Positions 5,021 to 64,000 are shown, counted from the first letter of the stretch. The stretch is DNA of 64,000 bases from Candidatus Eiseniibacteriota bacterium (GCA_963717935.1 CAVQXP010000004.1:1632001-1696000); one strand, 5' to 3'. Notes: a model not told the origin generated them from the sequence alone. Translations and numbers: made by a program.

Positions 5021-5108
5021 GCCGGGGTGGCGGAACTGGCTAGACGCGGCGGACTTAAAATCCGCTGGGCTCACGCCCGTCCGGGTTCGACTCCCGGCCC
5101 CGGCACCA
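5021..5108 (+). tRNA. tRNA-Leu (anticodon UAA)
   Basis: Acceptor stem GCCGGGG/CCCCGGC, anticodon arm GCGGA-CTTAAAA-TCCGC, long variable arm, T-arm CCGGG-TTCGACT-CCCGG, encoded CCA end. Confidence 0.96.
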
Positions 5109-6707: not shown

Positions 6708-7057
6708 GGGGGATGTGCACTCCTGAGGCGAAGGGCCGGTGAAGTGCGCCGCCGCGGCGAACGGTGCGGGTGCGTCCCTGCGGGGGGATGCCGGTTTCTC
6801 GAATCCGGAGGGCGCGCGATCTGGAACGCGATCCCACCGTGGCCGAGAGGTTGTGTCCGGAGCGGGCGACAGTTGTCCGGGGGAGGACAATCATCCCGGG
6901 CCGGCGTCACAGCGGGCTCTGGTGTGGTGCCCGCGTGCGGCGGGCCTGAACTTCCGGGCCGCTCCGGCGGCGTCTGCGGCTTCGGGCAGGCGACGCGCTC
7001 TCATGCTATCCTCGGCGCGCCTTCGTCACGCCCAACCTGCCTTCCAGGGGAGCCGCC

Positions 7058-7963: not shown

Positions 7964-7966
7964 CCG

Positions 7967-8040
7967 GTAGCGGCTCCAGCGAATCGACCCCGGCGAGCGC
8001 ATGGTGCCTCTGCTCGCCGGGGTCGATTCGCTGGAGCCGC
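7967..8040. repeat. Intergenic hairpin element, copy 2 (perfect 29-bp stem, same 13-nt loop, GTAG foot)
   Basis: 7970-7998 is the exact reverse complement of 8012-8040; loop GCATGGTGCCTCT; GTAG at 7967-7970. Confidence 0.92.
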
Positions 8041-8124
8041 AGCCCCCCGGGCCGGTTCCGCGGCTCCGGTGGGCGATGGTCGGAAAGGGTGCCCCGGGCT
8101 CGAACCCGGATCGCCTTCGTTCGT

Positions 8125-10377
8125 CTACCCGCCCTGGCCGGACGCCGGCCGGGACGCCGGCTGCCGGGGCTCCGCCACGTACTGGCGCGCTTCCTCCTTG
8201 CCGTCGAGGACGCGCAGGACGCCCTTGACCAGCGCGGAGAGTTCGTTCTCGCCAGGGTAGAGGCTCACGCCGCAGCCCATGGCCGCGACCATCCGCGTGA
8301 TCTCGCCCACGAGGCGCTGCGAGCGGGCCATGCCACCCGTGAGCAGGATGCGATCGACCGGCTCGCCGTCGAAGGCCGGGACGAGCGAGGCGATCTCCTT
8401 GGCGATCTGGTAGACCATCGCCTCGAAGACCTGCGCCGCCTCCTGGTCGCCGGCATCGATGCGGCGCTCGACCTCGCGCAGGTCGGCCGTGCCGAGCAGA
8501 TCGATGAGCCCGCCGCGCCCCTTGTTGAGCAGCTTGAGCTCGGGCTTCGTGTAGCGGCCCGAGAAGCACAGCTCGATCAGTTGGCCGGTGGGCATGCCGC
8601 CCGAGCGCTGCGGCGAGAACGGCCCTTCGCCGTCCAGCGCGTTGTTGACGTCGATGTAGCGGCCGCGCTTGTGCGCGCCCACGCTGATGCCGCCGCCCAG
8701 GTGGCAGACGATGACGTTCACCTTCTCGTAGAACGTCTCGTGCTCCTCGGCGTAGCGGCGTGCGGTGGCGATCTGGTTGAGGGCGTGGCTGATGATCTTG
8801 CGGCGCACGGCCTTCATGCCGCTCACGCGGACGCGCTCGGGTGCCTCGTCCACCACCACGGGGTCCACGATGAAGGCGGGCTTGCCGAGGCCGGTGGTCA
8901 GCTCGCGGGCGATCAGCGCGCCCAGGTTCGAGGCGTGCTCGCCGTAGCGTGCCGTGCGCAGGTCGGCCACCATGTCGTCGGAGACGGCCAGCGTGCCGTG
9001 CGGGATGGGGTGCAGGATGCCGCCGCGGGCCGCGATGGCATCCAGGTCCGCCACGCTCAGTCCGTGGTCGGCCAGGGCCTTCGTGATGATCTGCTTGCGG
9101 AAGGCGTATTGCTCGGTGATGCCCTTGCCCTCGAAGGGGAGCAGCTCCTCGGCCGTGTGCTGCAGTTCGAGCGTGAAGCGCTCCTCCTCGCCCTCGAAGA
9201 CGCCGATCTTGGTCGACGTGGAACCTGGATTCAGGGCCAGCACGCGGTGGCGGTGGAAGAAGGTATCGCGCGGCGTGCGGTCCCACTCGCCGAAGCGGTA
9301 CATGCGGAGCACCGAGGCCTTGACCGCGAGCCGGATGTCCTCGGGCGCGCAGTCCATGGGAAGGTCTACGCCGCGGAACCGCAGGCCGAACATGGCGGGG
9401 AACTTCTTCGCGTCCGGGAAGCGCGCCGCGTAGAGGTGGTAGAGCAGGTTCCCCATCTCGAGGTTCGGGCAGATGATCACGTTGGGGCTGCCGCCCCACG
9501 TCGACTCGCGGTTCCCGTCGTAGTACATGGCCGAGCGCTGCGACAGCGCCACCGAGACCTTGACCTCGCCCTGGATGCGGATCGTCGCGTAGCGCTCGTT
9601 CTTGTCCACGCGCTCGGCCAGCACGCGGGGGATGAGCGCCATGGCCTGCCGGACCAGTTCGGGCGAGGGGCCCTCGTCCGAGCCGCGGTTCGAGTAGGAG
9701 ACGATGACGCCGTGGATCTCGGGCAGCACCTCCACCGGGATCAGGTCGCGCGCGATCACGCAGGTGCCGACCGCCACGTGGGCGAGCGCCTCGGGCGTCA
9801 TGGTGGCGTTCACGCCGACGTCACCGAAGACCACGATGCCGTGCGGGAAGACATCGGGCGTCGTGTCGTCGGGGAGCACGAAGACCCCCGCCTCGCAGCG
9901 CACCGGCTGCCGGGCGAGCAGCCGGACCATGGGCCGGAAGTAGTCCCTGGGTGCGTGTGTGGCGCCGCCCACGACCGTGTCGGCGTGGCCGAGGCGCACG
10001 GCCCAGATGCCGAAGCGGGCGGGCTCCATGACCGTGCGCCGCGCCTGGTCGAGCGGGATCTCGGCATCCTGCTCCTTGCAGAATTCGAACTGTGCGCGCG
10101 CGAACTCCTCGACCAGGTCGGTGCGCCCGGGGATGTCCACGAAGGCGCTCTCCGACAGGAAGAAGTCCACGCGGTCGGCATCCACGTGACCGAGGCTCCG
10201 GGCGATCACGTCACGCACCTGCGGCTCGGAGGCCAGGAACACGGGGCGCACGAAGCGGACGAGGTGGCAGACCGCCTCGATGACGCGCGGGTCGAGGGCC
10301 TCCGGGAAGACGACGGTGGGGCGGGCCTTGGTGAAGCCCTGGATCTGCTGGTCGAAGGTGTCTTCGATATCGAACAT
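8125..10377 (-). CDS. buk: Fusion of a phosphotransacetylase-like domain and butyrate kinase
   Basis: 750 aa from MFDIEDT with GGAG RBS. N-half VVFPEA..PRV, FGDVGVN, SYSNRGS, PNLEMGN (Pta fold). C-half NPGSTSTK, ARGG, HASNLGA, VDPVVVDE, HALNQ, HLGGGIS, LTGG, YPGENE (butyrate kinase). Confidence 0.88.
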   Translation of the reverse strand: MFDIEDTFDQQIQGFTKARPTVVFPEALDPRVIEAVCHLVRFVRPVFLASEPQVRDVIARSLGHVDADRVDFFLSESAFVDIPGRTDLVEEFARAQFEFCKEQDAEIPLDQARRTVMEPARFGIWAVRLGHADTVVGGATHAPRDYFRPMVRLLARQPVRCEAGVFVLPDDTTPDVFPHGIVVFGDVGVNATMTPEALAHVAVGTCVIARDLIPVEVLPEIHGVIVSYSNRGSDEGPSPELVRQAMALIPRVLAERVDKNERYATIRIQGEVKVSVALSQRSAMYYDGNRESTWGGSPNVIICPNLEMGNLLYHLYAARFPDAKKFPAMFGLRFRGVDLPMDCAPEDIRLAVKASVLRMYRFGEWDRTPRDTFFHRHRVLALNPGSTSTKIGVFEGEEERFTLELQHTAEELLPFEGKGITEQYAFRKQIITKALADHGLSVADLDAIAARGGILHPIPHGTLAVSDDMVADLRTARYGEHASNLGALIARELTTGLGKPAFIVDPVVVDEAPERVRVSGMKAVRRKIISHALNQIATARRYAEEHETFYEKVNVIVCHLGGGISVGAHKRGRYIDVNNALDGEGPFSPQRSGGMPTGQLIELCFSGRYTKPELKLLNKGRGGLIDLLGTADLREVERRIDAGDQEAAQVFEAMVYQIAKEIASLVPAFDGEPVDRILLTGGMARSQRLVGEITRMVAAMGCGVSLYPGENELSALVKGVLRVLDGKEEARQYVAEPRQPASRPASGQGG

Positions 10378-10571
10378 GCGGTCTCCGGCTCCCGCGCCGG
10401 CCGGGGAAGAGGGTCGGTCCGTGCGCACGGCGGTACTTGGTTAAGCCATCGGACGACCGGCGACGCCGGTCGCAACGGGGCATTCTAGCAATGGAACGGC
10501 CCCACGTCGCGCAACGCGCCCGCTCGAGCGCCGCGGCCAGGCTGGCGGCGCTCGAGGGGACGATCCCGGCC

Positions 10572-11389: not shown

Positions 11390-11418
11390 TTGACGCGGGG
11401 CCGCGGGGGGCGGACGAT
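11390..11418 (+). promoter_or_regulatory. Putative sigma70-type promoter of the S46 peptidase gene
   Basis: TTGACG-N17-GACGAT. Confidence 0.35.
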
Positions 11419-11561
11419 AGGGCCGCGAGCGCGCCGCGTGGCCGCGCGGCCCGTCCTGCGGACGGGGCCGTGCGGCGGGGAGTGCCCGACCAGACTCGCG
11501 TCCTGTCCCATCCCGGTCCTCCGGCCCCTGCCGGTCGGGCCGCGTCCCCGGGGGAGAACTC

Positions 11562-13678
11562 ATGAGCCGCACCGCCACGCTCCGGCGCGGAACCCGCGCC
11601 TTCGCCGCCTCTGCGGCACTCTTCGCCATCCTGGTCGCAGCCGTTCTCCTGCCGGACGCCGTCCGAGCGGACGAGGGCATGTGGACCTTCGACCACCTGC
11701 CGCTCCAGCGGCTGCAGGAGCGCTACGACTTCACGCCCACGCCCGAATGGGTCGAGCACGTCCAGAGGGCCTCGATCAACTTCGGCGGTGGTTCGGGTGC
11801 CTTCGTGTCGCCCGACGGGCTGGCGCTCACGAACCACCACGTGGCGCTCGGCCAGATGGCGAAGATGTCCTCGCCCGGGCACGACTACGTCCGCGACGGC
11901 TTCTTCGCGCGCACTCGCGCCGAGGAGCTGCCCTGCCCCGACCTCGAGCTCAAGGTGCTGATGACCAGCCAGGACGTGACCGCCCGCGTCCTGGGGGCGG
12001 TGGACTCGGCGGCCGTCGACCAGCGAGCAGAGCGCCCAGCGCAAGGTGGCCATGGCCCGCATCGAGCAGGAGGGGAGCCGCGACGGGCTCAGGGGCGAGG
12101 TGGTCGAGCTGTACCGCGGTGGCGAGTACTGGCTCTACCGCTACAAGACCTACAAGGACGTGCGCCTGGTGTGCGCGCCCGAGGAGCAGGCCGCCTTCTT
12201 CGGCGGCGACCTCGACAACTTCTGCTATCCCGCGCCACGACCTGGACTTCGCCTTCTTCCGCGTCTACGAGGACGGCCGGCCGGTCCGCCCGCAGCACTG
12301 GTTCCGCTGGAGCAAGGAGGGCGCGCGCGAGGGCGACCTCGTCTTCGTGGCGGGCAATCCGGGCACGACCAAGCGACTCTACACCGTGGCGCAACTCGAC
12401 CACGAGCGGAACCTGCGATCTGCCGCTGCGGATCCGCCTCAACGAGCAGCGCCTCGCGGCCTACCGGGCCTACGGGGCGCGCGGGCCCGAGCAGGAGCGC
12501 CAGGCCCGCGACCGGGTCCGCGGCCTCGAGAACAACCTCAAGCGCCAGCACGGTTTCCTGGAGGTGCTCTCGGACTCCGGCGGTGATGAAGGCGCGCCGC
12601 GACCGCCGAGGCGGCCCTGCGCCAGCGCATCGCCGCGAACCAGGCGGTCTCGGGGCTGGCGAGCCTCGCCTGGGAGCGCATCGCCGGCGCCATGAAGGAG
12701 ATGGGCCGCCGGCACACGGAGCACGTGGTGCGCGATCTCTCGCGTTCGAGCCGCCTGCTCGACATCGCGAACGGCATCGTGCGCTACACCACCGAGGTGG
12801 TGAAGCCCAACGAGCGAGCGCTTCAAGGAGTACCGCGACGCGAGGCTCGACTCCGAGCGCTTCCGGCTCTTCTCGCTCGCGCCCGTCTATCCCGAGATGG
12901 AGGAGATGACCCTCGGCGTGGTCCTGAGGCAGTGCCGCGGACGAGCTGGGCGCGGACGATCCGTTCGTCCAGGCTGGCGCTGGGCGGACGCACGCCGCAG
13001 GAGTGTCGCGCACACGCTGATCGCGGGCACGAAGCTGGGCGACCTCGCCGTGCGCACGGGCCCTGATCGAGGGCGGTGCGCAGGGCCGTGGCCGCCTCGA
13101 AGGATCCGCTCATCGTCTGGGCGCGTAGGCTCGACGCTCCCTACCGCGAGCTGCGTGCCTGGCACGAGGACCGCGTGCAAAGCGTCGAGACCCTGGACGG
13201 CGGGAGGATCGCGCGGGCGCGCTTCGCGCTCGAGGGCCGGGCGCTGCCCCCGGATGCCACCGGCTCGCTGCGGCTCTCCTACGGGAAGGCGGTCGGCTAC
13301 CCGCAACTGAGCACGCTGGTGCCCTGGGCCACCACGTTCCACGGCCTCTTCGACCGGGCGCTGAGCTTCGGTGGCCAGCCGCCGTTCGACCTGCCGGCGC
13401 GCGTCGCCGAGCACGAGAAGGACCTCGATCTGGCCACGCCGCTGAACTTCGTCAGCACCGACGACATCATCGGGGGGAACTCGGGCAGCGCGGTGCTGAA
13501 CCGCGCAGGCGAGTACGTGGGCCTGGTGTTCGACGGCAACGTGCAGGCCTACGCCTGGGACTACTACTACACCGAGGAGCAGGCGCGCTGCGTCTCGGTG
13601 CATTCGCGGGCGCTGATCGAGGTGCTGCGGAAGGTCTACGACCTGGGCGCGCTGGCGGACGAGGTGGAGGGGAAGTAG
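11562..13678 (+). CDS. S46 family dipeptidyl peptidase (DPP7/DPP11-like); several frameshifts, probably sequencing indels
   Basis: Signal peptide then [77 protein letters not shown], spread over alternating frames. Confidence 0.88.
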
Positions 13679-13890
13679 CCCCCGGGCACGGCGCCAGAGG
13701 CGCGGCGGGGACCAGCGGAGGGCGAGCGTGTCCGTACTTAGCCGCCTTCCGCTGGTCCCCGCCGCGCCTCTGGCGCCAGGGCAGGTCGGAGGGCGAACGT
13801 GCGGACGATCAGCCGCCCTCCGGCTGGCCCCGCCTCCGTCGCGCCCTGTTGGAGTCCCGGACTCGCCCTGTGGCATAGTGCGGCCCGACC

Positions 13891-15386
13891 ATGACCTCCA
13901 CCCGCGCATCCGGTCTCCTGCTGCATCCGACGTCGCTCCCCGGACGCTTCGGCATCGGCGACCTCGGGCCCGAGGCGTCGCGCTGGGTGGACTTCCTCGC
14001 CGCGGCAGGGCAGAGGCTCTGGCAGGTCCTGCCGCTCGGTCCCACCGGATACGGCGACTCGCCCTACCAGAGCTTCTCGGCCTTCGCCGGGAACCCGTAC
14101 CTCGTGAGCCCCGAGCGGTTGTCCGAGGACGGTCTGCTGGGGCCCTCGGACCTCGCGGGAGTGCCAGCGTTCCCCGCCGACCGCGTGGACTACGGTCCGG
14201 TGATCGAGTGGAAGCTCGCGATCCTGGCGAAGGCCCACGCGCGCTTCTCGGCGGGCGCCGTCCCCGTGCTGCGCGCGGAGTACGATGGCTTCTGCCACGC
14301 ACAGGCGGACTGGCTCGAGGACTTCGCCCTCTTCATGGCGCTCAAGGAAGCGCACGGCGGTGCGACCTGGACCTCGTGGGAGAAGGGCCTGGTCGCGCGG
14401 GAGCCCGGGGCCCTCGCCGCCGCGCGCGAGCGCCTCGCGTCGGCGGTGGACTCGCAGCGTTTCCGCCAGTTCCTCTTCTTCCGCCAGTGGAGGGCGCTGC
14501 GCGCGCGCGCGCGCGCGGCAGGGCGTGCGCATCATCGGCGACCTGCCCATCTTCGTCGCGCACGACAGCGCCGACGTCTGGGCCCATCCGGAACTGTTCC
14601 AGCTCGACGCCCGGGGCGCGCCCGACGGTCGTGGCCGGCGTGCCGCCGGACTACTTCGCGAAGACCGGGCAGCTCTGGGGCAACCCGCTCTACCGCTGGG
14701 ACGACGCTGCGCGCGGGACGGCTACGCCTGGTGGGTGGAGCGGCTGCGCGCCACCTTCGAGGTCGTGGACGTCGTGCGGCTCGACCACTTCCGCGGCTTC
14801 GAGGCATGCTGGGAGGTGCCGGCGGGGCATGCCACGGCCGAGAACGGGCCGCTGGGTGAAGGGGCCGGGCGCGGCACTTCTTCGAGAGCGTGCGCGCCGC
14901 GCTGGGAGCGCTGCCCATCATCGCCGAGGACCTCGGCCTGATCACCCCCGAAGTCTTCGCGCTGCGCGACCGCTTCGATCTGCCGGGGATGAAGGTCCTG
15001 CAGTTCGCCTTCGAGAAGGACGCGCTGCACCCGTTCCTGCCGCACAACTTCCCGCACGAACTGCGTGGTCTACACCGGGACCCACGACAACGACACCACG
15101 CGCGGCTGGTACGCGAGCGCGCCCGAGAAGGAGCGCCACTTCGCGCGGTCCTATCTGGGTCGCGGAGGGCAGCGACATCACCTGGGACCTGATCCGCGCC
15201 GGCATGGCCTCGGTGGCCGACACGTTCATCGTGCCGCTGCAGGACGTCCTGGACCTGGGGCCCGAGGCGCGCATGAACCTGCCCGGCCGGCCGGGCGGCA
15301 ACTGGGGCTGGCGTTTCCGGCACGAGCAGGTGACGGACGCCGAGCGCGACCGGCTGCGGGGGCTCGTGGAGACCTACGGGCGATAG
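13891..15386 (+). CDS. malQ: 4-alpha-glucanotransferase (amylomaltase, GH77); frameshifted
   Basis: GLLLHPTSLPG, WQVLPLGP, SPYQSFS, IIGDLPIFV, AGVPPDYF..TGQLWGNPLY, RLDHFRGF, IAEDLG, YTGTHDNDT, MNLPG..GNW.WR. Confidence 0.92.
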
Positions 15387-15467
15387 CAGACCGCGGAGTT
15401 GGAGGCGCGTGGCCCTCTCCCGGTGTATATTCCCGGATTCCATGACCTTCCACCCGAGGCCCGCCGC

Positions 15468-17540
15468 ATGAATCCAGTCCCCGACTCGCCTGCCCTCCAG
15501 CCGCCCTCCGATCTCAACCCCCGGCACGAGCCGGTGCTCGACTTCCCCGACCGCGAGCTCGGAGAGATGACGCCGGCGGACTACCAGGCTCTGGGCTTCA
15601 TGTCGGGTCTCGAGGTGCACCAGCAGATCGTCACCCGCGGCAAGCTCTTCTGCCGCTGCCCGGCCGGCCGGCGCGTCACCCGCGTGGACGCCGAGGTGCT
15701 GCGTCACATGAGGCCCACGCTCTCCGAGTTGGGCGAGTACGACGGCTGCGCGCTCATGGAGTTCAAGACCCGCAAGGAGATCGTCTACCTGCTCGAGCGG
15801 GGCACGGTCTGCACCTACGAGATCGACGATACGCCGCCCTTCCCCATGGACGACGAGGCCGTGCGCGTGGCGCTCGAGATCGCGCTGCTCTTCGGCCTGA
15901 ACCTGGTCTCCGAGCTGCACGTGATGCGCAAGCAGTACCTGGATGGCTCGATCCCGACGGGCTTCCAGCGCACGGCGATGATGGGGCTCGCCGGGTGCAT
16001 CCCCTTCCGCGTGCCCGAGCTGGGCGTGGACCGCGAGCTGCGCATCCGGCAGTTCTCGCTCGAGGAGGACTCCTGCCGCGAGGTCTCGGACGTCGGGCAC
16101 CGCATCACCTTCCGCACCGACCGGCTGGGGATGCCGCTGATCGAGACGGTGACCGAGCCCGATCTCCTCACGCCCTACGAGGTCGCGGCGGGCGGGCGCC
16201 TCCTCTCCCGCGTGGCGCGGGCTTCGGGCAAGGTGCGTCGCGGGGCGGGCGCGGCGCGTCAGGACACGAACGTCTCGGTCGCGGGCGGCCGGCGCGTCGA
16301 GATCAAGGGCGTGGGCAACCACCGGCACCTGCCGCTGCTCACGCATAACGAGGCCTTCCGGCAGTTGAACCTGCTGCGGGTGCGGGCCGAGCTGCGCAGC
16401 CGCGGGGTGGAGGCGAAGGACCTGGCCGTCCCCGACGGGCCGCGGCCCTGGGAGCGCTCGCCACTCGTCGTGCACGCGGGCCCGATGCTCAGGCGCTGCG
16501 ACTACATGCCGCTGCGCGAGGCGCGCGAGCGCGGCGACACGGTGGTGGCGCTCGCGCTGCCCGGCTTCGGCGGCCTGCTGACGCGGGGCACCCAGCCGGG
16601 CGTGACCTTCGCGCGCGAGTTCGCCGACCGCGTGCGGGTGATCGCGTGCCTCACGGCGCGGCCCTTCATGATCCACTCCGACCTGTCGGACTACGGTCTG
16701 ACCCCGGCCGAATGGCGGTCGCTGCGGAAGAGCCTGCGCGCGGGGCCGTCGGACGCCGTCCTGGTGCTGTGGGGCACCGAGCAGGATGTGGAGACGGCGG
16801 TGCGCGAGGCGTTCCTGCGGGCGCGTGACGCGCTGGTCGGCGTGCCCGCGGAGACGCGGCAGTCCTTCCTGGACGGGACCACCGGATTCGAGCGCATCCT
16901 GCCCGGGGCCGATCGCATGTACCCCGACACCGATACACCCCCGAAGGCCATCCCGGAAGCGTGGGTGGCCGAGATCACCGCGCGCCTGTCCGAGCGCCCC
17001 TGGGAGCGGGAGAAGCGCTACCGCGCCCTCGGGTTCGCCGTGGTGCTGGCGGGCCGGCTGGCCGATGCCACCGAGACCGCGGATCTCTTCGACGCGCTCG
17101 CCGTGCCGGCAGGACCGGCTGCGGCGCGCGTGGCGGGCGCGCTGCTCAAACGTCCTGCGCGCTGGCGCCGCAGGCGGGCGGGCGAATCCCCGGCGAATCC
17201 GGAGCGGTTGAAGCCCCTGGTGGATGCCTTCGTGCAGGGCGAGTTACGGCCGGAGGGCTTCGAGCGCGCGCTCGAGCGCGCGCTGGCCGAGCCGGAACGG
17301 ACGGTGGCGGAGCTGCTCGACAGCGTGCGACCGCGAGCGGGCGATGTCGAAGAGGCCGGGCGGAGCATCGCCGCGGCGGTCGAGCGCTGCCGGGCGCTGC
17401 CGGACCGTCCGCGCGCGAGCCTGGTGCGCTGGGCCATGGGACTGGTGATGCGCGACCTGATCGGGCGCGTGGACCCGCGCGAGGTGCAGGCGCGGCTCGA
17501 GCGAGCGCTCGCGGCCCGGAAGGAGGGGGTGGGGCGATGA
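15468..17540 (+). CDS. gatE: Glu-tRNA(Gln) amidotransferase subunit E (archaeal type)
   Basis: GLEVHQQ..KLFCRCP, RPTLSELGEYD, MRKQYLDGS.PTGFQRT, LEEDSCR, DRLGMPLIE, RQD.NVSV..G.RVEIKGV, AspRS-like insertion (IHSD), PGADRMYPDTD, C-terminal MG.VMR. No frameshift. Confidence 0.93.
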   Translation: MNPVPDSPALQPPSDLNPRHEPVLDFPDRELGEMTPADYQALGFMSGLEVHQQIVTRGKLFCRCPAGRRVTRVDAEVLRHMRPTLSELGEYDGCALMEFKTRKEIVYLLERGTVCTYEIDDTPPFPMDDEAVRVALEIALLFGLNLVSELHVMRKQYLDGSIPTGFQRTAMMGLAGCIPFRVPELGVDRELRIRQFSLEEDSCREVSDVGHRITFRTDRLGMPLIETVTEPDLLTPYEVAAGGRLLSRVARASGKVRRGAGAARQDTNVSVAGGRRVEIKGVGNHRHLPLLTHNEAFRQLNLLRVRAELRSRGVEAKDLAVPDGPRPWERSPLVVHAGPMLRRCDYMPLREARERGDTVVALALPGFGGLLTRGTQPGVTFAREFADRVRVIACLTARPFMIHSDLSDYGLTPAEWRSLRKSLRAGPSDAVLVLWGTEQDVETAVREAFLRARDALVGVPAETRQSFLDGTTGFERILPGADRMYPDTDTPPKAIPEAWVAEITARLSERPWEREKRYRALGFAVVLAGRLADATETADLFDALAVPAGPAAARVAGALLKRPARWRRRRAGESPANPERLKPLVDAFVQGELRPEGFERALERALAEPERTVAELLDSVRPRAGDVEEAGRSIAAAVERCRALPDRPRASLVRWAMGLVMRDLIGRVDPREVQARLERALAARKEGVGR

Positions 17541-18925
17541 CGGACGACCGCTACAAGGGCTACCGCGAGCCCTGCCTGTCGGTCCTGAAGCGGTTCGACG
17601 TGACCGTGTGGTGCGAGGTGCGGGCCCGCACCTCGCGCGGCGATTTCGAGGGCCTGCTGCTCCCGCGCTCGGAGACCGCCGACCCGCTCCACCTCGTGCT
17701 CAAGCTCACCACCGGCTACAACGTGGGGCTGCGCCACGACACGGTCACCGGGCTCGAGAAGATCGGCTACCGCGAGGCGCACTACCAGATCCCCGAGCGT
17801 GAGTTCCCGGTGAACCCGGCCATGCCCCGCGTCAAGCTCCTCGGCACGGGTGGTACGATCGCCTCGCGGCTCGACTACCGCACCGGGGCGGTCATCCCCG
17901 CCTTCAGCCCCGGCGAGCTCTACGGCTCGGTGCCCGAGCTCGCCGACATCTGCAACCTCGAGACGGAGAAGCTCTTCGGGGTGTTCTCGGAGAACATGGG
18001 GCCGGAGCAGTACATCGTGCTGGCGGAGCGGATCGGCGAGGCCATCCGAGACGGCTGGGACGGCGTCGTGGTCGGGCATGGCACCGACACCATGCACCAC
18101 ACGGCCGCGGCGCTCTCGTTCATGGTCCAGCGCTCGCCGGTGCCCGTCATCATGGTGGGCAGCCAGCGTTCCTCGGACCGGCCTTCCTCGGACGCGGCGC
18201 AGAACCTCATCAGCGCGACGTGGGCCGCCGCGCACGGGCCCATCGCCGAAGTCATGGTGTGCATGTTCGGCCCGACGTCTGACCGCTACAACCTGCTGCA
18301 CCGGGGGACGCGCGTGCGCAAGATGCACACCTCCTACCGCAGCACCTTCCGCACGCTGGGGGACATCCCGCTCGCGATGGTCGAGCGCGGGAAGCTCACG
18401 CCGCTCAAGGAGGACTGGGCACCCCGGCGCAAGGACCGGGACGTGACGGTGCAGGCGGTCTTCGAGGAGCGCGTCACGATCGTCTACTACTATCCGAACA
18501 TGAACCCCGACCTGATCGACGCGCTGGTGGAGAAGGGCTACAAGGGGATCGTCATCGCGGGCACGGGCCTGGGGCACGTGAACCGCAAGATCTATCCGGC
18601 CCTCGATCGCGCCCGCAGCGCCGGGGTGCTGATCTTCATGGCCGTGCAGACGCTCTGGGGCTTCGTGCAGATGTACGTCTACGAGACGGGGCGGGAGATC
18701 CTGGAGCTGGGGGTCACTCCGCTCGCGAACATGCTGCCCGAGGTGGCCTACATCAAGCTGGGCTGGGCGCTCGGCGTGCATCCCGACGATCCCGAGGCGG
18801 CGCGGCGGCTCATGGTCACGCCGATCGCGGGCGAGACCACCGAGCGCGAGCCGCACGACGGCTACCTGGTGTTCCAGGGCGGTGTTCCCGAGATCCAGGA
18901 GTTCCTGGGCAAGGTCTGGAAGTGA
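17537..18925 (+). CDS. gatD: Glu-tRNA(Gln) amidotransferase subunit D (archaeal type, asparaginase-like)
   Basis: ATGA overlap with gatE stop; GatD N-domain FEGLLLPR..VLKL.TGYNVG; GTGGTIASRLDYRTGAV, HGTDTM, GSQRSSDRPSSD, HRGTRVRKMHTS. 462 aa. Confidence 0.94.
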   Translation: MTDDRYKGYREPCLSVLKRFDVTVWCEVRARTSRGDFEGLLLPRSETADPLHLVLKLTTGYNVGLRHDTVTGLEKIGYREAHYQIPEREFPVNPAMPRVKLLGTGGTIASRLDYRTGAVIPAFSPGELYGSVPELADICNLETEKLFGVFSENMGPEQYIVLAERIGEAIRDGWDGVVVGHGTDTMHHTAAALSFMVQRSPVPVIMVGSQRSSDRPSSDAAQNLISATWAAAHGPIAEVMVCMFGPTSDRYNLLHRGTRVRKMHTSYRSTFRTLGDIPLAMVERGKLTPLKEDWAPRRKDRDVTVQAVFEERVTIVYYYPNMNPDLIDALVEKGYKGIVIAGTGLGHVNRKIYPALDRARSAGVLIFMAVQTLWGFVQMYVYETGREILELGVTPLANMLPEVAYIKLGWALGVHPDDPEAARRLMVTPIAGETTEREPHDGYLVFQGGVPEIQEFLGKVWK

Positions 18926-18947
18926 ACCGACGAGGACGGATGACCGC

Positions 18948-20407
18948 ATGAAGCCGACGACGATGGCACCGACCGAAGCGAAACCGGCGCGTGGAGCGGG
19001 AGCGGTGGCTGCCGCGAGTCCCGGGTCCCCGAGCCTGCCCGCCTGTCTGCTCGAACGCCTGATCGGCCGCCCGGCCGCCACCTGGACGGTGGACGACCTG
19101 GTGACGCTCGCCGCCGGGCGCGGCGTGCGTCTCGTGAGCCTCATGCACGTGGGCGGCGACGGCTGGCTCAAGGTCCTGGACTTCGTGCCACGGAGCCGCG
19201 AGCACCTGCGCGACATCCTCTCCGGGGGCGAGCGCGCCGACGGCTCGAGCCTGTTCGCGGGGCTCGGGCCTCGAGGTGGGGGCCTCGGACATCCTGTTGC
19301 GGCCCCGTGTCGAGACCGCGTTCCTCGATCCGTTCGCGGTCCAGCCGACGCTGGTGCTGCTCTGCGGCCACGCGGGGCGCGACGGCGCGCCGCCTGCCGC
19401 AGTCACCCGACACCATCGTGCGCCAGGCCGGCGAGCGGCTGGTGCGCGAGCTGGGCGTCGAGTTGCACGCGCTGGGCGAGGTCGAGTACTTCCTCGGCCG
19501 GCGCGCGGGCGAGGAGGATGTCTACGGCGCGAACGACCGGGGCTACCACGCCACGTCGCCGTTCGTCTTCGGCGAGGCGCTGCGGCGCGAGGCCATGGCC
19601 CTGCTGGCCGAGATCGGCGTGCCCGGTCAAGTACGGGCACAGCGAGGTGGGCTACGTCCAGGCCACCGAGGCGGACGGGCTCATCTGGGAGCAGCACGAG
19701 ATCGAACTGGGACTCGCTCCGCTGCGCGGCCGCCGCCGACGCGGTGGTGCTCACCCAGTGGGTGCTGCGCAACCTCGCGCACCGGCAGGGCATGCGCTGC
19801 AGCTTCGATCCCATCCTGCGACGCGGCCACGCCGGCACGGGCCTGCACTTCCACTTCTCGCCGGTCCGCGACGGGGAGCACCTCGGCGGGCGCGGCGCGG
19901 ACGGGAGCGCTGAGCCCGCCGGCGCAGTGGCTCATCGCGCGGGCTGGTGCGCATGGGCGGGGCGCTCATGGCGTTCGGCAACCGCACCGAGGGCTCGCTC
20001 ATCCGCCTGACCCAGGCCAAGGAGGCGCCCAACGCCATCGTCTGGGGCGAGTTCGACCGCAGCGCGCTGGTGCGGCTGCCGATCGTGGCGCGCACCGAGG
20101 ACGGCCGGCCGGTGAGCCCGCCGACCATCGAGTTCCGGCTGCCCGACGGCTCGGCCCACCCGCACCTGCTGCTCGCGGGCGTGGCGCAGGTGATGGTCGA
20201 GGCGACGGGCGAGCGCGGACGTCGAGGCGCTGCTCGAGCGCACGTCGGTGACGGCGCTCAAGCGCGGAGCGGGGACGGTCGACACCCGTGCCGACACGGT
20301 TCCTCGAGGTGGCGGAGGCGCTGACGGCCAGCCGCGCCGCGCTCGAAGCGGGCGGGGTCTTCCCGCCGGTGCTCCTCGACCGGCTGATCGAGCGCCTGCG
20401 GGCGTAG
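18948..20407 (+). CDS. Glutamine synthetase family protein; frameshifted
   Basis: GERADGSSLF, FLDPF, LGEVEYF, KYGHSEVG, EQHEIE, GHAGTGLHFH, RL....EAP, RSALVRLP, TIEFRLPDGSA across frames; stop TAG at 20405-20407. Confidence 0.85.
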
Positions 20408-20416
20408 CGCGCCCGC

Positions 20417-21768
20417 TCAGGCGGTGGTCGCCAGCGCCTCGTCGATGGTCGTGCAGTCCACCAGCCCGCTGCAGCCGTAGAGCACGGGCAGCAGCTTCTC
20501 CGGCGGATGATGGCGCCGCAGCTCGGCGACGAGATCGGTCCCCGCGCGGTAGCACGGCAGGTACATGCGCCCCATCAGCGGGTGCCTGCCCCAGGCGCCG
20601 GCGAACTTCTTCGCCCGCTCCTCGGAGACCAGGAAGTCGCGCCGCAGCACCGGCGCCACGTCCGCCTCGGCCGCGCGCTCCTGCCAGGTGAGGTACGAGG
20701 CCTGGTTCTTGGCGTCGTCCTGCAGCAGCGCCAGCAGCAGCCCGATCTTCAGGTCGTCGTCGGGGATCTGGTCCAGCTCGGTCACGCCGTGAGCGATGAG
20801 GATGGCGTTGTTGGCGATGCCCTCGAAGAGCGTGGCCGCGCGGGTGTTCATGGTGAGCACCGAGGCCTCGAAGCCCACCTGGCCGCGCCAGTAGAGGTCC
20901 TGCAGGAAGGCGAAGGTGGTGACGTGGCCGGGCACGACCTCGTGCGAGACGAGCTGCTCGAACTCCGGCACCGTGATCTGGAGCGACGCGTTGATCTCGT
21001 AGGAGGCCTCGTACTCGGGCCGGCCGCCGGGACGGCGCCTGCGGCCGAGGTAGTTCATCGAACCCGAGAACCAGGCGTCCTTGATGGGCAGGAACTCGAT
21101 GTTGTCCATGGGCACGTCGCCGAGTTCGGCTCGGCAGGAACGGGCGCAGGTTGCGCTCGGCCAGCGCGCGATAGTGGGCGATGTAGGCGCCGCCCACGGA
21201 GCGCACGCAGGCCATCGGGCACGTAGCGCGTGCCGCGCCAGGCGTCCACCGCCGCGAGCAGGTCGGCGTCGCTCGCCGACGGGTGGCCCGCGCGCGCCAG
21301 CAGTTCCTGCACCTGGCGGCGCTTCGTCGCCGGGTCCGAGGGCGAGGGCGGCTGGCCGGTCGAGGCCAGCACGCAGCGCTCGTAGGGGACGGGCTCACCC
21401 TTGCCGAGGATCTCCAGCCCCAGGTCCAGCATGACCTCGAAGCACAGGGCGAGTCCCGCGACGTAACGGCCGCGCAGGCCGCTCATGCTCTTCGCCTCCG
21501 TGCCGAGGGCGGCGATGGCGCCGCGCACGTCCACCGCGGCGAGGTAGGTCTCGACGGCGGCGCGGTCGGGCTCCTTCGCGGACACCCCGCCGCTCTCGCG
21601 CACGCGCGCGGCCGCCGGGTGCGTGTAGGCGGGTGGCAAGGGGGCGTCGGAGAACCAGGAGTCGGCGATGAAGCGCCCGAGGCCGGAGGGGTTCATGACG
21701 TCGCCGCCCCAGAGGGTGTCGATGCCGAGGACGGCGTTGGCGACGTGCTCGTCGAAGCGCTGGCTCAT
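20417..21768 (-). CDS. Conserved hypothetical protein with HExxPGH motif (DUF885-like, possible metallopeptidase); frameshifted around 21100-21220
   Basis: ORFs 21055-21768 and 20417-21115 join; SHEVVPGHV followed by FEGIAN; GAGG RBS before 21768. Confidence 0.6.
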
Positions 21769-21926
21769 GGAGCCTCCTCATGCCTGGCCCGGGACACGAG
21801 CGCGGGCCGCGCAGGGCTGGATGGACATGCGATCGGGCCCACCCGCGCGGACGCGGATGGTGGAGCGGGCAGTCTAGCGCAAGATGTGCCCGGCTGCCGC
21901 CCGGGGAGCGGTCCGGCCTGGAAACG

Positions 21927-21962
21927 AACGCGCCCGGACCGCTTCACGGGTTCGGGCGCGTT
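21927..21962 (-). terminator. Terminator-like hairpin downstream of the small ORF
   Basis: AACGCGCCCG...CGGGCGCGTT stem followed on the minus strand by CGTTTCC. Confidence 0.5.
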
Positions 21963-22000
21963 GCTTGAGGCGGGGAGGCCCCGCCCATGTTCCGCCGAAG

Positions 22001-22057
22001 CTAGCGGCGGATCCACCACAGCAGATCGATGAACAGAACGATCAGGCCGACTTCCAC
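22001..22057 (-). CDS. Putative 18-aa hydrophobic peptide MEVGLIVLFIDLLWWIRR
   Basis: GGAGG RBS 6 nt before the GTG; GC3-biased codons; TAG stop at 22001-22003. Confidence 0.5.
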   Translation of the reverse strand: MEVGLIVLFIDLLWWIRR

Positions 22058-22162
22058 GGTCCACCTCCGGTGGGAGAGTGGCGCGCTCTTCGCGCGGTCA
22101 ACCGTCTGGATCGGCCGTCCGTGGGTTGGCATCACGGACGGGGGAAGCGGCTTCCTGTCGCT

Positions 22163-24634
22163 TCACCTCGTAGTGTCGGCAGCCTCGGGCTGGAACTTTA
22201 GCTCTTCCTGGCGGGGCCCGGGACGCGCGTGGGCGGGCCGGGTGACCTGCTTGAGCACCACCACGGTCACGTCGTCCAGGGGTCGATCGGTGAAGGCCTG
22301 GACCGCGGCCAGCAGCGCCCGCAGGATCTCGGCCGCGCCCTTGCGGGCGTGGGCCTCGAGCACCCTGCGGACCCCCTCCGGACCGAACTCCTCCTCGCCG
22401 TGCCGTGCCTCCGTGAGCCCGTCCGAGTAGAGCACGATGATGTCTCCGGCATCGAGCTCGACGCTGCAGTCCTCGTACTGCGCCCGGGGGGAGACCCCGA
22501 GCAGGACCCCGCTCTGGCAGAATTCCTCGAAGCGGCCGTCGCGCCGGCGCAGCAGCGGCGGGGTGAGCCCCGCGTTGGCGAAGGTGAGCGAGGCGCCTCG
22601 CACGTCGACCCGGGCGCAGAGCAGGGCCACGAAGGCCTCCGGCTGGTTCAGCGCCACCAGGTCGTGGTTCAGGGCGGAGAGCAGCTGGCCCGGCGCGGCG
22701 CCCCGGCGCGCCCGGTCCCGGAAGGCGGCGTGCGCCCAGGTGCCCATGAGCGCGGCGGGGATGCCCTTGCCGGCCGCGTCCCCCACGGCCAGCGTCACCA
22801 CCGGGCCGGGGCTGCGGACGAAGTCGTAGTAGTCGCCCCCGATCGATTCGGAGGAGAGTGCGGCCGCCGCGCAGTCGAGTGAGCGGAAGACCGGCACCCG
22901 CCGGGGAAGCAGATGCGCCTGGATGACGCCGGCCTTCGAGAGCTCGCGATCCCTGACGCCGTGCGTGCTCGCCGCCTCGCGCAGGCGTGCGTTCTCGAGC
23001 AGCACTTCGAGGTGCCCGGCAAAGCGCCTCAGCTCGCGCTGGTCCTCGAGCCCGAACCAGGAGCCGCCCAGACGCCGGCCCAGCATCAGGCAGTGCCGGA
23101 CGGCCCCGCCCACGGGCAGCAGCCACGCCACGCCGGCGCGCTCCAGCGCGCGGCGGTCAGGCGCGCGCAGGCACAGGTCCTCCAGCGCCACGACCCCGCC
23201 GCCCTCGGGCAGGGCCGCGCTGAAGTCGGTCTCCGGCGATGGGCTCACCGTCACGCCGGCGCACGCCGCGGTCCGCAGTCCCCCGCGGGCGAACTCGAGC
23301 GCCAGGCAGCCGTCGAGGTGGAAGGCCCCGGCCAGTGCCCGGCAGGCCGCCTCGATCACGTGGCTCGGGGGGCCGTGGCGTGCGCCGGGGTCGGCGTCCA
23401 GCCGTTCGGTGGCCGTGGCCACGTCGGGGACGAAGCGCGCCCCGAGCGAGCGCAGCCAGCGGCTCGCGGGTCCGGCGACCGCGGCGGTGAGGGCCACGAA
23501 CGTCAGCGCTCCGCCGGCCAGGCCCGAGCCGAGATCCCGGTGCCACGCGGCGGCGAGCCATTCGCCCGCGACGTAGACGAGCCCGCCCAGCGTGGCGAGC
23601 ACCACCAGTACGACCGCAGCCCGCATGGCGACCTTGAACTCGAAGACGCGGTGCACACCGGTGGCCCAGGCGAACGACGCCGGCACGAGCAGGGTGAGGA
23701 GCACGGCCAGGCGCTCGCCGGGGATCGGTTCACCGGGCGAGAGGTTCCGCACCGCGACCAGCGTGGCGAAGGGCAGGGCCCCGAGCGCGGTGCCTGCCAG
23801 CGCCACCCGCAGCCGCCGCCGCGCGTCCGTGGAGCGCGCGCGGCGATAGGAACCCGCGAACACGTAGAGCGCGGCCAGCAGCCCGAACGCGAACCACAGT
23901 CCGGCCATGCCCTGGATCAGGGACTGCGCGGTCGCGGCGATGACCCCGAAGACCGGTTCGGCCAGTGTGATGAGGAACGAGGCCCCGAAGAGACCCGTGG
24001 CCACACCGTAGGCGATGGTGGTGGCCGAGCGCAGACGGCCCCTCGGCCGGCCCGACTCGGGGAAGAGGGCGAAGAAGTGGATGAACAGCGCCGGCAGGTA
24101 GAGGCCCACGCCGGTGTAGAGCGCGTCGTACAGCACGCCCGAGGCCTCGCTGCGCCAGCGCGGCAGCGGCGCGAGGAACCAGGCGAAGGCCAGGCAGAGC
24201 AGGAAGAAGGTCCGCGTGAGCCGGTCGCGGCGCTCGCTCCAGACCCAGCCGCCGATGAGCACGAAACCCGACGCCGCGGCCAGCAGGGCGGCCATCATGC
24301 GGCGCTCGCCGTCGGGGAGCGCTATCGGCACCACGCGGATCGTGGCCAGGTCAGGGCCGCGCTCGCGCAGCAGGACCATGGGCACGCCCGGGACCGCGGA
24401 GGCGAGGGGGGAGCGCGCGAAGGGCGGCTGGCCGGGTTGCGGGAGCAGGTGGTCCCCGGGGGCGAGCCCGGCGCCCTCGGCCGGGCCGCCGGGAACGACC
24501 GCCACGACGCGGTCCCCGCGCAGGACGAGCCCCGCGTATGGCTGGAGGGGCAGGCTCAGGGCCGACAGGATCAGCGCGGCCGCGACGGGCAGGAGCAGCC
24601 AGGACAGGAGGGAAGACGAAGTGCCGCGATCCAT
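22163..24634 (-). CDS. Membrane-bound SpoIIE/PP2C phosphatase (PDZ, multiple TM segments, GAF-like region, phosphatase)
   Basis: Start MDRGTSS with GGAGG RBS; PDZ-like VVPGGPAEGAGLAPGD; several TM segments; GGDYYD, GDAAGKG, NAG..PP, YSDGLTE, DDVT. Confidence 0.85.
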   Translation of the reverse strand: MDRGTSSSLLSWLLLPVAAALILSALSLPLQPYAGLVLRGDRVVAVVPGGPAEGAGLAPGDHLLPQPGQPPFARSPLASAVPGVPMVLLRERGPDLATIRVVPIALPDGERRMMAALLAAASGFVLIGGWVWSERRDRLTRTFFLLCLAFAWFLAPLPRWRSEASGVLYDALYTGVGLYLPALFIHFFALFPESGRPRGRLRSATTIAYGVATGLFGASFLITLAEPVFGVIAATAQSLIQGMAGLWFAFGLLAALYVFAGSYRRARSTDARRRLRVALAGTALGALPFATLVAVRNLSPGEPIPGERLAVLLTLLVPASFAWATGVHRVFEFKVAMRAAVVLVVLATLGGLVYVAGEWLAAAWHRDLGSGLAGGALTFVALTAAVAGPASRWLRSLGARFVPDVATATERLDADPGARHGPPSHVIEAACRALAGAFHLDGCLALEFARGGLRTAACAGVTVSPSPETDFSAALPEGGGVVALEDLCLRAPDRRALERAGVAWLLPVGGAVRHCLMLGRRLGGSWFGLEDQRELRRFAGHLEVLLENARLREAASTHGVRDRELSKAGVIQAHLLPRRVPVFRSLDCAAAALSSESIGGDYYDFVRSPGPVVTLAVGDAAGKGIPAALMGTWAHAAFRDRARRGAAPGQLLSALNHDLVALNQPEAFVALLCARVDVRGASLTFANAGLTPPLLRRRDGRFEEFCQSGVLLGVSPRAQYEDCSVELDAGDIIVLYSDGLTEARHGEEEFGPEGVRRVLEAHARKGAAEILRALLAAVQAFTDRPLDDVTVVVLKQVTRPAHARPGPRQEELKFQPEAADTTR

Positions 24635-24714
24635 GCGGACCTCCCGGTGCAGTTCGGGTGCTGGTGCGGTGTCGGGGCGGACTTGCGCAGCCAACGCCAC
24701 GTACAGACATTGGC

Positions 24715-24742
24715 AGGCTATCAACAGCGAGACGGCTGTCAA
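24715..24742 (-). promoter_or_regulatory. Putative sigma70 promoter of the membrane phosphatase gene
   Basis: TTGACA-N16-TAGCCT on the minus strand, in a locally AT-richer patch. Confidence 0.45.
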
Positions 24743-24900
24743 CGCCTGATTTTGCGCCTGATTCCACGCCGGCCGGGACCGGCCCGGGCCCGGACACGGC
24801 GACGCGGCCCCGGTGAAGCCGGGGCCGCGTCTTCGCCACGCCCCGGGCCGGGACCTTGCGGCCGGTGGAGCGCGCCGGGTGCCCGGCGGGGCCGGTGGAG

Positions 24901-25797
24901 CTAGGTGCCGGACTCGACGCGTCGCTTGAGCAGCTCCCAGCGCGTGTCGACCTCGGCCTGGACGTGGCGGACCTGCTCGGGCGTCAGGTGCCGGAAGCGC
25001 CCTTGCCGGCGGATGTAGGGTTCGACCGGGTCGCCCGGGTGGTCCGCGGTGAAACGCCAGCGCTGCCCGTTCTCCACCTCGAAGAGCGGGAACACGCGGG
25101 TGCGCACGGCCTGGCGTGCCAGATCCACGGTTTCCTCGTCGGGGACGTTCCAGCCCGGTGGGCAGGGCGCGAGTATGTGCAGGAACTTCGTGCCACGGAT
25201 CGTCCCGGCCTTCCGCACCTTCTCGATGAGGTCCACCGGGTGGGCCACCGTGCTCGTCGCCGCGTACGGGATGCGGTGCGCGGCGAGGATGCCGATCATG
25301 TCCTTCTTCGCGTGGGGCGTGGGAGTACCGCTCGAATCGGCAGCAGCCGGCAACTCCAGCGGCCCTGCCGGGGGACACGGGACTCCGACGTTCAGGCCTG
25401 CTCCGGCATCATGGCAGACGTAGAGGATGTCCTCGTTGCGCTCGGCGGCGTCCGACAGATCCTGCAGGCCGGTGCCGGACGTGTCGCCGGCCTCCGCCCA
25501 GGCCAGCACGGTCGTCTCCCGGTCGCCGCGCCCGTCGAGCGCAGCGCGGATGCCCGAGGCCGCAGCGGCTGCGGCCCCGGGAGTGACGCGCAGATGCGGT
25601 ACGCCGAGCGCCGACCGCGGTTCCGAGCCGCTGAGGATGGTCCAGGCGTACGCCGGCGAGGCGATGATGGTCTCGGGCCCGAGCGCCTTGAGAACGAGCC
25701 GCATGGCGATGCTGCCGCCGCAGCCCGGGCAAGCCAGGTGCCCTGACGCGAGCCACTCCTCGGGAGGGATCCGGTCCTTGATCGTGGATTGGCTCAT
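24901..25797 (-). CDS. 2-oxoacid:ferredoxin oxidoreductase beta subunit-like protein with degenerate TPP motif
   Basis: GHLACPGCG, ERNEDILYVC, KKDM..I..AH.IPYAAT, LAPCPPGW, FPLFEVENG; the GDG motif reads AEAGDT. Confidence 0.8.
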   Translation of the reverse strand: MSQSTIKDRIPPEEWLASGHLACPGCGGSIAMRLVLKALGPETIIASPAYAWTILSGSEPRSALGVPHLRVTPGAAAAAASGIRAALDGRGDRETTVLAWAEAGDTSGTGLQDLSDAAERNEDILYVCHDAGAGLNVGVPCPPAGPLELPAAADSSGTPTPHAKKDMIGILAAHRIPYAATSTVAHPVDLIEKVRKAGTIRGTKFLHILAPCPPGWNVPDEETVDLARQAVRTRVFPLFEVENGQRWRFTADHPGDPVEPYIRRQGRFRHLTPEQVRHVQAEVDTRWELLKRRVESGT

Positions 25798-25871
25798 GAC
25801 CTCGCTCCCATCCGGGGGTCTGCGGGCCTGCCACACGCGAAGGCCTGGTTGCCCAGGAAGCCCTTCTTCAC
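25794..25871 (-). pseudogene. Remnant of the oxidoreductase alpha subunit (porA-like), internally deleted
   Basis: 25-aa ORF MKKGFLGNQAFACGRPADPRMGARS; GTGA overlap with the upstream stop and ATGA overlap with the beta subunit; begins like a PorA N-terminus (GNxAxAxG). Confidence 0.55.

Positions 25872-61225: not shown

Positions 61226-64000
<2,775 letters not shown>

Follow-up and report, generated by a model that had tools for sequence, protein, structure and literature searches.

Can a soil-type bacterium that encodes its own glutaminyl-tRNA synthetase (GlnRS) also carry an intact copy of GatDE, an amidotransferase that has been regarded as an archaeal enzyme? This question is raised by a 64,000-nucleotide stretch of DNA from Candidatus Eiseniibacteriota bacterium (GCA_963717935.1 CAVQXP010000004.1:1632001-1696000), the whole of which is hereafter called the window, and in which two adjoining genes, gatE and gatD, occupy positions 15468 to 18925. 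In the literature, GatDE was named an archaeal signature protein (PMC2330236, 2008) and was later placed in archaea only (PMC7373986, 2020; PMC8007984, 2021). GlnRS is described as absent from all archaea (review PMC9499178), and textbooks and reviews to 2022 attribute this lack to GatDE and the tRNA-Gln of archaea having evolved together. Full-text literature searches, which had subscription journals outside their coverage, returned no report of a bacterial GatDE; public annotation already names bacterial proteins GatD and GatE. The family itself is known, but its presence in this domain and setting is unexpected.

Our analysis confirmed the archaeal-type GatDE at these positions. Judging from sequence comparisons, we consider it rather probable that the pair is a working amidotransferase, which makes or repairs Gln-tRNA(Gln) alongside GlnRS and which goes back to one transfer from an Asgard-related archaeon.

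Intact gatE and gatD genes in the window

The two genes and their junction are as follows.

15468..17540, + strand: gatE, 690 aa; tRNA-dependent kinase/transamidase subunit with a cradle domain, a putative AspRS-like insertion and a YqeY-like tail
17537..18925, + strand: gatD, 462 aa; glutaminase subunit that has an asparaginase fold behind the GatD N-terminal domain
17520..17540, + strand: gatE/gatD junction, with AAGGAGG at 17520-17526 and an ATGA start/stop overlap at 17537-17540, as read from the sequence

The AAGGAGG lies 10 nt upstream of the gatD ATG, which shares the ATGA with the TGA of gatE. The GC content of gatE and gatD is 0.71-0.74 (range in the window, 0.67-0.76), and the GC content at their third codon positions (GC3) is 0.91-0.95, as in the adjoining genes. 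Coordinates, frames, GC and GC3 agree with the translationally coupled pair, free of frameshifts and of host-like codon usage, that was described in the original prediction. Both genes are under purifying selection. The ratios of nonsynonymous to synonymous substitution rates (dN/dS) were 0.044 for gatD and 0.169 for gatE when compared with locus L001, which is part of a 3.6 Mb chromosome labelled Candidatus Eisenbacteria, and 0.169 and 0.299, respectively, when compared with locus L002. Across phyla, identity in the loci of relatives ranges from 60 to 97% for GatD and from 46 to 91% for the first ~520 residues of GatE.

Family membership and catalytic residues of GatE and GatD

GatE scored above the cut-off of the NCBIfam equivalog model TIGR00134 (391.1 bits; cut-off 319.55) and slightly below that of NF003107 (451.3 bits; cut-off 456), and the GatE models align over profile positions 3-619 of 622. 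Its matches to GatB models are no higher than 133 bits (1e-38) and fall mainly on residues 127-307. Among the solved subunits, GatE of P. abyssi (1zq1_C) was matched with 301 bits over residues 38-680, and that of M. thermautotrophicus with 269 bits. Pfam finds GatB_N in the protein, and the AspRS-like GAD domain reaches 22 bits (cut-off 23.4) in a region that lies inside the P. abyssi alignment. The YqeY-like C-terminal tail is present, as the alignment with 1zq1_C extends to residue 680, and the YqeY portion of NF011291 weakly matches residues 501-682 (E 3.6e-4). A 36-residue N-terminal extension lies outside the match of the archaeal models.

In M. thermautotrophicus GatE, the residues His15, Glu157 and Glu184 bind Mg and are required for kinase and transamidase activity (PMC2330236). 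They correspond in the alignment to His51, Glu199 and Glu226 of the window's GatE, and the three columns are kept in 75 of 75 bacterial GatE, a set made up of the window and the 74 loci with a complete 3' end. Residues 154-169 read RKQYLDGSIPTGFQRT, which is identical in 71 members of this set, and the pattern Y[ED]xDD[TA]PP occurs in all 75; in the two solved proteins from archaea, the first site reads RKQVIDGSNTGGFQRT or RKIVIDGSNVSGFQRT and the second DEEPP. The earlier suggestion that such GatE variants mark a bacterial clade therefore holds against the two solved archaeal proteins. The Tyr and Pro of RKQYLDGSIPTGFQRT (RKQY..IP) agree with GatB structures (RKxYFYPDLPKGYQ) at positions where both solved archaeal proteins differ, and may be linked to the reading of bacterial acceptor stems.

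GatD scored above the cut-offs of both TIGR02153 (485.9 bits; cut-off 324) and NF003217 (479 bits; cut-off 310), and matched the solved GatD of P. abyssi (1zq1_A) and M. thermautotrophicus (2d6f_A) with 384 and 371 bits, respectively. Pfam finds GatD_N (37.7 bits; cut-off 25.7) followed by the Asparaginase N and C domains, and type I is the best asparaginase subfamily model. The motifs TGGT, HGTDT, SDRPSSD and RKMH align with both solved proteins; the roles of the Thr nucleophile and of the Thr-Lys-Asp triad are those given in PMC2330236. The N-terminal domain and the motifs TGGT, HGTDT and RKMH, by which the protein had been identified as GatD, were thus borne out.

Distribution of the gene pair among bacteria

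We scanned species-representative genomes with the GatE query and analyzed the best 80 of at least 583 confirmed relatives as loci of ~20 kb each. All 80 carry bacterial labels and none an archaeal one; the labels are those of the submitters, given to metagenome-assembled genomes (MAGs). By label, 44 loci belong to Bacteroidota and 13 to Gemmatimonadota, three each to Acidobacteriota, Myxococcota and Krumholzibacteriota, two each to Eiseniibacteriota and Pseudomonadota, and one each to Chlorobiota, Calditrichota, Planctomycetota and Ignavibacteriota, while three are labelled as Bacteria without a phylum and three as 'uncultured bacterium'. Single MAG labels can be wrong, and this distribution is taken only as a sign of many bacterial lineages, mostly of the Bacteroidota-Gemmatimonadota kind. 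With the best 80 loci of at least 583 relatives all bacterial, GatDE is not confined to archaea, a trait that concerned where the enzyme was known to occur and not the enzyme as such, and the pair in the window is not the isolated oddity that the original prediction implied.

A gatD gene on the same strand lies 3' of gatE in 70 of the 80 loci, and eight of the other ten end at the edge of the sequence. Relatives of the GatD protein in the database exceed 8000; identity is 81% or higher for the first 120, of which the named ones are Eisenbacteria or Gemmatimonadota MAG proteins. Contigs of 1.1-5.7 Mb are among the hundreds of independent bacterial contigs that carry the gatE-gatD pair; complete or nearly complete sequences with the pair include Bacteroidales records of 4.1 and 4.9 Mb (L052 and L073) and a Holophagaceae contig of 5.7 Mb (L078). 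Clustering of the neighborhoods, based on 903 open reading frames (ORFs) of the 80 loci, gave beyond gatD and glnS/gltX only Bacteroidales-specific housekeeping neighbors; LptD, MlaD, an amidase and RidA are the neighbors in the Bacteroidales loci. The earlier proposal of an intact archaeal-type pair, accompanied by a GlnRS gene in a genuine bacterial context, is supported.

An apparent GatE-GatD fusion of 1120 aa in locus L021 was rejected as an ORF-calling artefact of a GC-rich frame, and Pfam finds no GatB_N there. In P0124 (943 aa; 59% identical to the window's GatD), the N-terminal catalytic domain of GatE is fused to a full GatD.

Phylogeny of GatD

The GatD protein was searched against 1.84 billion cluster representatives, and 150 representatives were listed. 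The first tree (LG+G4, quick search) had 143 rows, comprising 119 representatives of 400-500 aa, 23 GatD proteins from the loci and that of the window; 31 of the 150 representatives were left out for length. The bacterial rows formed one clade with a Shimodaira-Hasegawa-like approximate likelihood ratio test (SH-aLRT) support of 100, which was joined at 98 to four representatives. A search with one of these four, P0127, led to Asgard proteins, and the source names in its group are Sigynarchaeota, Lokiarchaeota, Hodarchaeota, Thorarchaeota, Helarchaeota, Odinarchaeia and Promethearchaeota, with one protein labelled Bathyarchaeota.

The second tree (LG+C20 with posterior mean site frequencies, PMSF; quick search) had 97 rows, consisting of the window, 17 loci, six representatives and 17 named Asgard proteins, to which alternate members of the other 112 representatives were added. 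Here the SH-aLRT of the bacterial clade was 100, and a split at 99 separated the bacteria, all 17 named Asgard proteins and three other representatives from 56 others; the branching order within the side of bacteria and Asgard was not resolved. P0133, found on the opposite side in the first tree, scores 773 bits to 1zq1_A, the GatD of P. abyssi, so that the Thermococcales-type GatD, at least, is found on the non-Asgard side. The representative P0144 had no close anchor on search.

Bacterial and Asgard GatD share eight signature residues and a C-terminal extension, and one residue is shared only with the other archaea. The window's GatD is ~47-49% identical to the closest archaeal GatD, which is that of Asgard. 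Beside the motif of the catalytic Lys, at GatD residues 244-246 and 267-269, two changes are found only in bacteria (MHG to MFG and SRRD to SYRS). All 56 of the non-Asgard representatives have the His of MHG; in the Asgard set, the residue most often seen at this position is Leu (10 of 20 rows). The comparison of GatD with archaea, which had been proposed together with the original prediction, thus gave a single, distinct bacterial clade (at 100) with an Asgard affinity (at 99). In our reading, this branch is best accounted for by a single ancient transfer to bacteria from a donor among Asgard-related archaea, after which inheritance was mostly vertical; the bacterial branch would then take in Eisenbacteria, Gemmatimonadota, Krumholzibacteriota, Bacteroidota, Ignavibacteriota, Calditrichota and others.

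Among the relatives of Asgard GatD, we also observed a GatD-archease fusion (P0303, by Pfam scan); the database's precomputed listing gives the same Pfam domains for P0317.

GlnRS, GluRS and their linkage to the gene pair

The genes for GlnRS and for the glutamyl-tRNA synthetase (GluRS) lie at the other end of the window.

61226..63063, + strand: glnS (GlnRS); one frameshift between 62908 and 62929, with the C-terminus in a second frame to 63063
63111..64000, + strand: gltX (bacterial-type GluRS); N-terminal part, which runs off the window, with a frameshift at ~63274-63311

Their location, ~42 kb from gatD, is as originally described, and the GlnRS is genuine; both genes are frameshifted, a possibility that had been flagged for glnS only. 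GlnRS scores 773 bits with the GlnRS/YqeY model (cut-off 681) and 635.1 bits with the glnS model TIGR00440 (cut-off 425.8), and it matches GlnRS of P. aeruginosa with 665 bits and that of E. coli with 608 bits. The motifs LHIGH and VMSKR are present, and Cys and Gln are retained at the positions aligned with E. coli Cys229 and Gln255, residues that we take to mark the choice of Gln rather than Glu. We considered whether this protein could be a Glu-charging enzyme that feeds GatDE, and rejected the idea, since the best matches are bacterial GlnRS and the equivalents of Cys229 and Gln255 are kept.

The reading frame of glnS in the window is interrupted by a single frameshift ~50 codons before its end. 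Both halves are ~90% identical to intact orthologues, which are 606-611 aa long at 90-92% identity and include P0411 on a 3,623,634 bp contig, a length shared with the L001 chromosome; it is suggested that the L001 sister genome has an intact glnS as well as an intact gatED. The frameshift is most likely an assembly artefact.

Linkage of the synthetase genes to gatE-gatD is much closer in some relatives. In four Gemmatimonadota-labelled loci (L010, L012, L014 and L023; at ~10-16 kb), glnS lies directly 3' of gatD, and gltX is located upstream on the opposite strand. In L017 (at 0.6-6 kb), glnS lies beside gatE in divergent orientation, so that glnS-linked loci total five of the 80. The GlnRS proteins of these loci are 54-59% identical to that of the window. 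This clustering argues that GatDE, GlnRS and GluRS serve one process, and for co-expression of the two routes instead of use of one or the other; it favors a part for GatDE in the charging of Gln/Glu-tRNA over an unrelated substrate.

Two further features of the synthetases were noted. The window's GlnRS has a 38-aa insert (61529-61648) with coding-like GC3, which is absent from Gemmatimonadales GlnRS and from solved GlnRS. The insert is common to proteins of ~611 aa with 78-92% identity, several of which are labelled as Thermoleophilia, Gaiellales or Actinobacteria MAGs, and this type of GlnRS looks to have been exchanged between phyla. In turn, the GluRS of L012 (437 aa) has ~40 residues fewer between its positions 97 and 100 than solved bacterial GluRS.

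Frameshift patches and host context

Single-base insertions, established against L001 where comparable, occur in the window in patches at 10.8-15.4 kb, 18.9-22 kb, 44-56 kb and 62.9-63.5 kb, and are found outside homopolymer runs too. The broken genes are those for an S46 peptidase, malQ, a glutamine-synthetase-family (GS-family) gene, gdhA, uvrD, an inositol monophosphatase gene, glnS and gltX. One-base indels relative to L001 number ~15 in the S46 peptidase region, 9 in malQ and 8 in the GS-family gene, or ~32 in ~5.3 kb; the L001 versions are intact, at 731, 497 and 480 aa, respectively. By Pfam, malQ is in five pieces, gdhA in three, uvrD in at least three, and inositol monophosphatase and gltX in two each. 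At the flanking indel rate, ~20 frameshifts would be expected in the 3.46 kb of gatE-gatD, which has no net frameshift and shows only one compensating pair of indels, 4 nt apart, against L001. The long genes without frameshifts also include pckG, pta-buk and those for 1108-aa and 1626-aa proteins. Because the pieces of the broken genes stay 77-94% identical to the L001 proteins, and because essential genes such as gltX are hit, the insertions are probably local assembly or consensus errors rather than decay.

The window holds the usual functions of a bacterial genome (GTP-PEP carboxykinase, glucokinase, phosphate butyryltransferase, butyrate kinase, SucB and LpdA), and it also encodes a PorU-type type IX secretion sortase and proteins with sorting domains of the type IX secretion system. 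Positions 11392-26425 are syntenic with L001, in which GatE and GatD are 91% and 97% identical to those of the window, and the database lists the window's GatD on a 2.14 Mb contig.

Genes adjoining the pair

The pair is flanked by the following two genes.

13885..15386, + strand: malQ (4-alpha-glucanotransferase); upstream neighbor, in pieces in the window and intact in L001
18948..20404, + strand: GS-family gene; directly 3' of gatD, in eight pieces by 1-nt insertions and intact in L001

The gap between malQ and gatE is 81 nt in the window; in L001, an IS481-family transposase and two unnamed ORFs (6234-9940) separate the two genes. The GS-family protein is divergent (137.7 bits, below the GlnA cut-off of 429), and a homologue lies near gatE in three of the 80 loci, namely L001 (13481-14923), L035 and L073. 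It could act as a supplier of the amide donor, and its link to GatDE is weak.

Elsewhere in the window, an ORF of 771 aa (8125-10440, - strand) joins an N-terminal half that resembles phosphotransacetylase to a C-terminal butyrate kinase half, and is adjoined by a phosphate butyryltransferase gene (6950-7963) that is separate from it. The gene for tRNA-Leu(UAA), at 5021-5108, is the sole tRNA gene in the window.

Proposed function and alternative explanations

In the reading that we favor, GatE would bind Glu-tRNA(Gln) as its substrate and phosphorylate the gamma-carboxyl with ATP/Mg2+ by means of His51, Glu199 and Glu226. GatD would hydrolyse Gln or Asn, using the Thr nucleophile of TGGT and the Thr-Lys-Asp triad, and the ammonia would pass via an internal tunnel to GatE to give Gln-tRNA(Gln). 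Beside the direct charging by GlnRS, an active GatDE would provide a parallel or repair route for Glu-tRNA(Gln) that comes from an incompletely discriminating or non-discriminating GluRS, and both routes would be active together.

Several points weigh against this reading. Bacterial tRNA-Gln normally has a U1-A72 pair. The solved archaeal GatDE is specific for Gln and reads A1-U72 of tRNA-Gln together with the D-loop (PMC2330236), and therefore recognition must have changed. Moreover, a Glu-tRNA(Gln) amidotransferase looks redundant where GlnRS is present, and for bacteria that have both GlnRS and an amidotransferase, GatCAB was tied to questions of AsnRS and Asn, not of Gln (PMC4206432). Neither the window nor any of the 60 loci (of 80) that were scanned for tRNA genes has a tRNA-Gln gene, and in two of the 80 loci (L024 and L072) no gatD was found within 2.2-3.0 kb after the GatE match. 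As for the history of transfer, the GatD trees are unrooted and GatD alone was compared with Asgard; rooting on the stem of the bacteria would agree with the topology as well, although Asgard would then become the earliest archaeal branch.

The redundancy with a canonical GlnRS speaks for the main rival reading, in which GatDE is an Asp-tRNA(Asn) or dual Glu/Asp enzyme in the role of GatCAB and, with Gln left to GlnRS, would provide Asn-tRNA(Asn) in genomes without AsnRS or asparagine synthetase. Bacterial GatCAB reads U1-A72, which is common to tRNA-Gln and tRNA-Asn (PMC2330236), and a GatDE adapted to bacterial acceptor stems might therefore accept both. Such a role would also be consistent with the Tyr and Pro of the invariant GatE motif, which match GatB and not the two solved archaeal GatE, and with GatD of M. 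thermautotrophicus, which takes Asn as an amide donor nearly like Gln (PMC2330236). However, the synthetase genes clustered with gatDE are glnS and gltX, not aspS or asnS, and archaeal GatDE is specific for Gln (PMC2330236); we regard an Asn-directed enzyme as unlikely. That GatDE was re-tuned to bacterial acceptor stems, and either acts concurrently with GlnRS on one tRNA-Gln pool or has replaced GatCAB as a dual Gln/Asn enzyme, is a tentative proposal, possible in our view though doubtful. The same redundancy, the clade-specific changes MHG to MFG and SRRD to SYRS beside the catalytic Lys of GatD, and the GS-family gene 3' of gatD in the window and in L001 might point to recruitment of GatDE outside ribosomal translation, for example to tRNA-dependent amide synthesis for a metabolite or the envelope. 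We think this very improbable, given housekeeping neighbors with no biosynthetic cluster, a GatD that is 60-97% identical across phyla, as expected of a core translation enzyme, the retention of all kinase and glutaminase residues, and the linkage to glnS/gltX.

Two explanations turn on the quality of the sequence. According to the one, which was raised in the original prediction, glnS is truly dead here, and GatDE with a non-discriminating GluRS would be the only route to Gln-tRNA(Gln). A frameshift ~50 codons before the end of glnS is indeed present, but it is the sole defect of a gene whose halves are ~90% identical to intact orthologues of 606-611 aa, and 1-nt insertions likewise break gltX, uvrD, gdhA, malQ and the S46 peptidase, inositol monophosphatase and GS-like genes, with the L001 copies of the tested broken genes intact. 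Loss of GluRS too would not be viable, and therefore an assembly artefact is more likely; a dead glnS seems improbable to us. According to the other, archaeal DNA was misjoined into a bacterial contig by chimera or contamination, in agreement with the reviews that describe GatDE as archaea-only. This possibility, also named at the outset, is excluded for practical purposes: the composition is uniform, a 3.6 Mb chromosome of independent origin is syntenic, the pair occurs on hundreds of other, independent contigs of bacteria, and the closest archaeal GatD is only ~47-49% identical. In comparison with these alternatives, we prefer the parallel or repair route beside GlnRS.

Implications and comparison with known systems

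If GatDE was indeed re-tuned to bacterial acceptor stems, whether it acts concurrently with GlnRS or as a dual Gln/Asn enzyme, it would be a living counter-example to the co-evolution argument for mutual exclusion of GlnRS and GatDE. On that view, the gatE-gatD-glnS clusters would represent a snapshot of GlnRS taking over the indirect route, with an Asgard-related donor of the amidotransferase. The bacterial GatDE clade beside GlnRS, large and strongly conserved, offers natural material on how an amidotransferase changes tRNA identity rules, as well as on the coexistence of direct and indirect Gln-tRNA routes and the displacement of the indirect one by GlnRS. With its Asgard affinity, GatD would be a further example of a core translation enzyme that passed from an archaeon to a bacterium long ago. 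GatD and GatE no longer fit as archaeal markers for binning or contamination screening.

The closest known system is the archaeal GatDE (1zq1 of P. abyssi and 2d6f of M. thermautotrophicus), with which the bacterial pair has in common the two subunits, the domain order and the catalytic residues, and whose equivalog hidden Markov models it passes. It differs in its bacterial host, in the 36-residue N-terminal extension and divergent tail of GatE, in the invariant GatE motif RKQYLDGSIPTGFQRT, to which RKQVIDGSNTGGFQRT and RKIVIDGSNVSGFQRT correspond in the solved archaeal proteins, in the alterations beside the catalytic Lys of GatD, and in its co-occurrence with GlnRS. The nearest archaeal relatives of bacterial GatD are the Asgard GatD (MAG proteins of Sigyn-, Loki-, Hod-, Thor-, Hel- and Odinarchaeia and Promethearchaeota), to which the window's GatD is ~47-49% identical; the bacterial GatD form a clade of their own (100).

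Bacterial GatCAB has the same chemistry, with a tRNA-dependent kinase, a glutaminase and an ammonia tunnel, and the cradle domain of GatE is homologous to GatB. In contrast to GatCAB, the glutaminase of GatDE is the asparaginase-fold GatD and not the amidase GatA, there is no GatC, and GatE has a putative AspRS-like insertion. Coexistence of a direct GlnRS with a tRNA-dependent amidotransferase has a precedent in Deinococcus, Thermus and Bdellovibrio (PMC4206432). There the amidotransferase is GatCAB; its place is taken here by GatDE, for which no specificity other than that for Gln is known.

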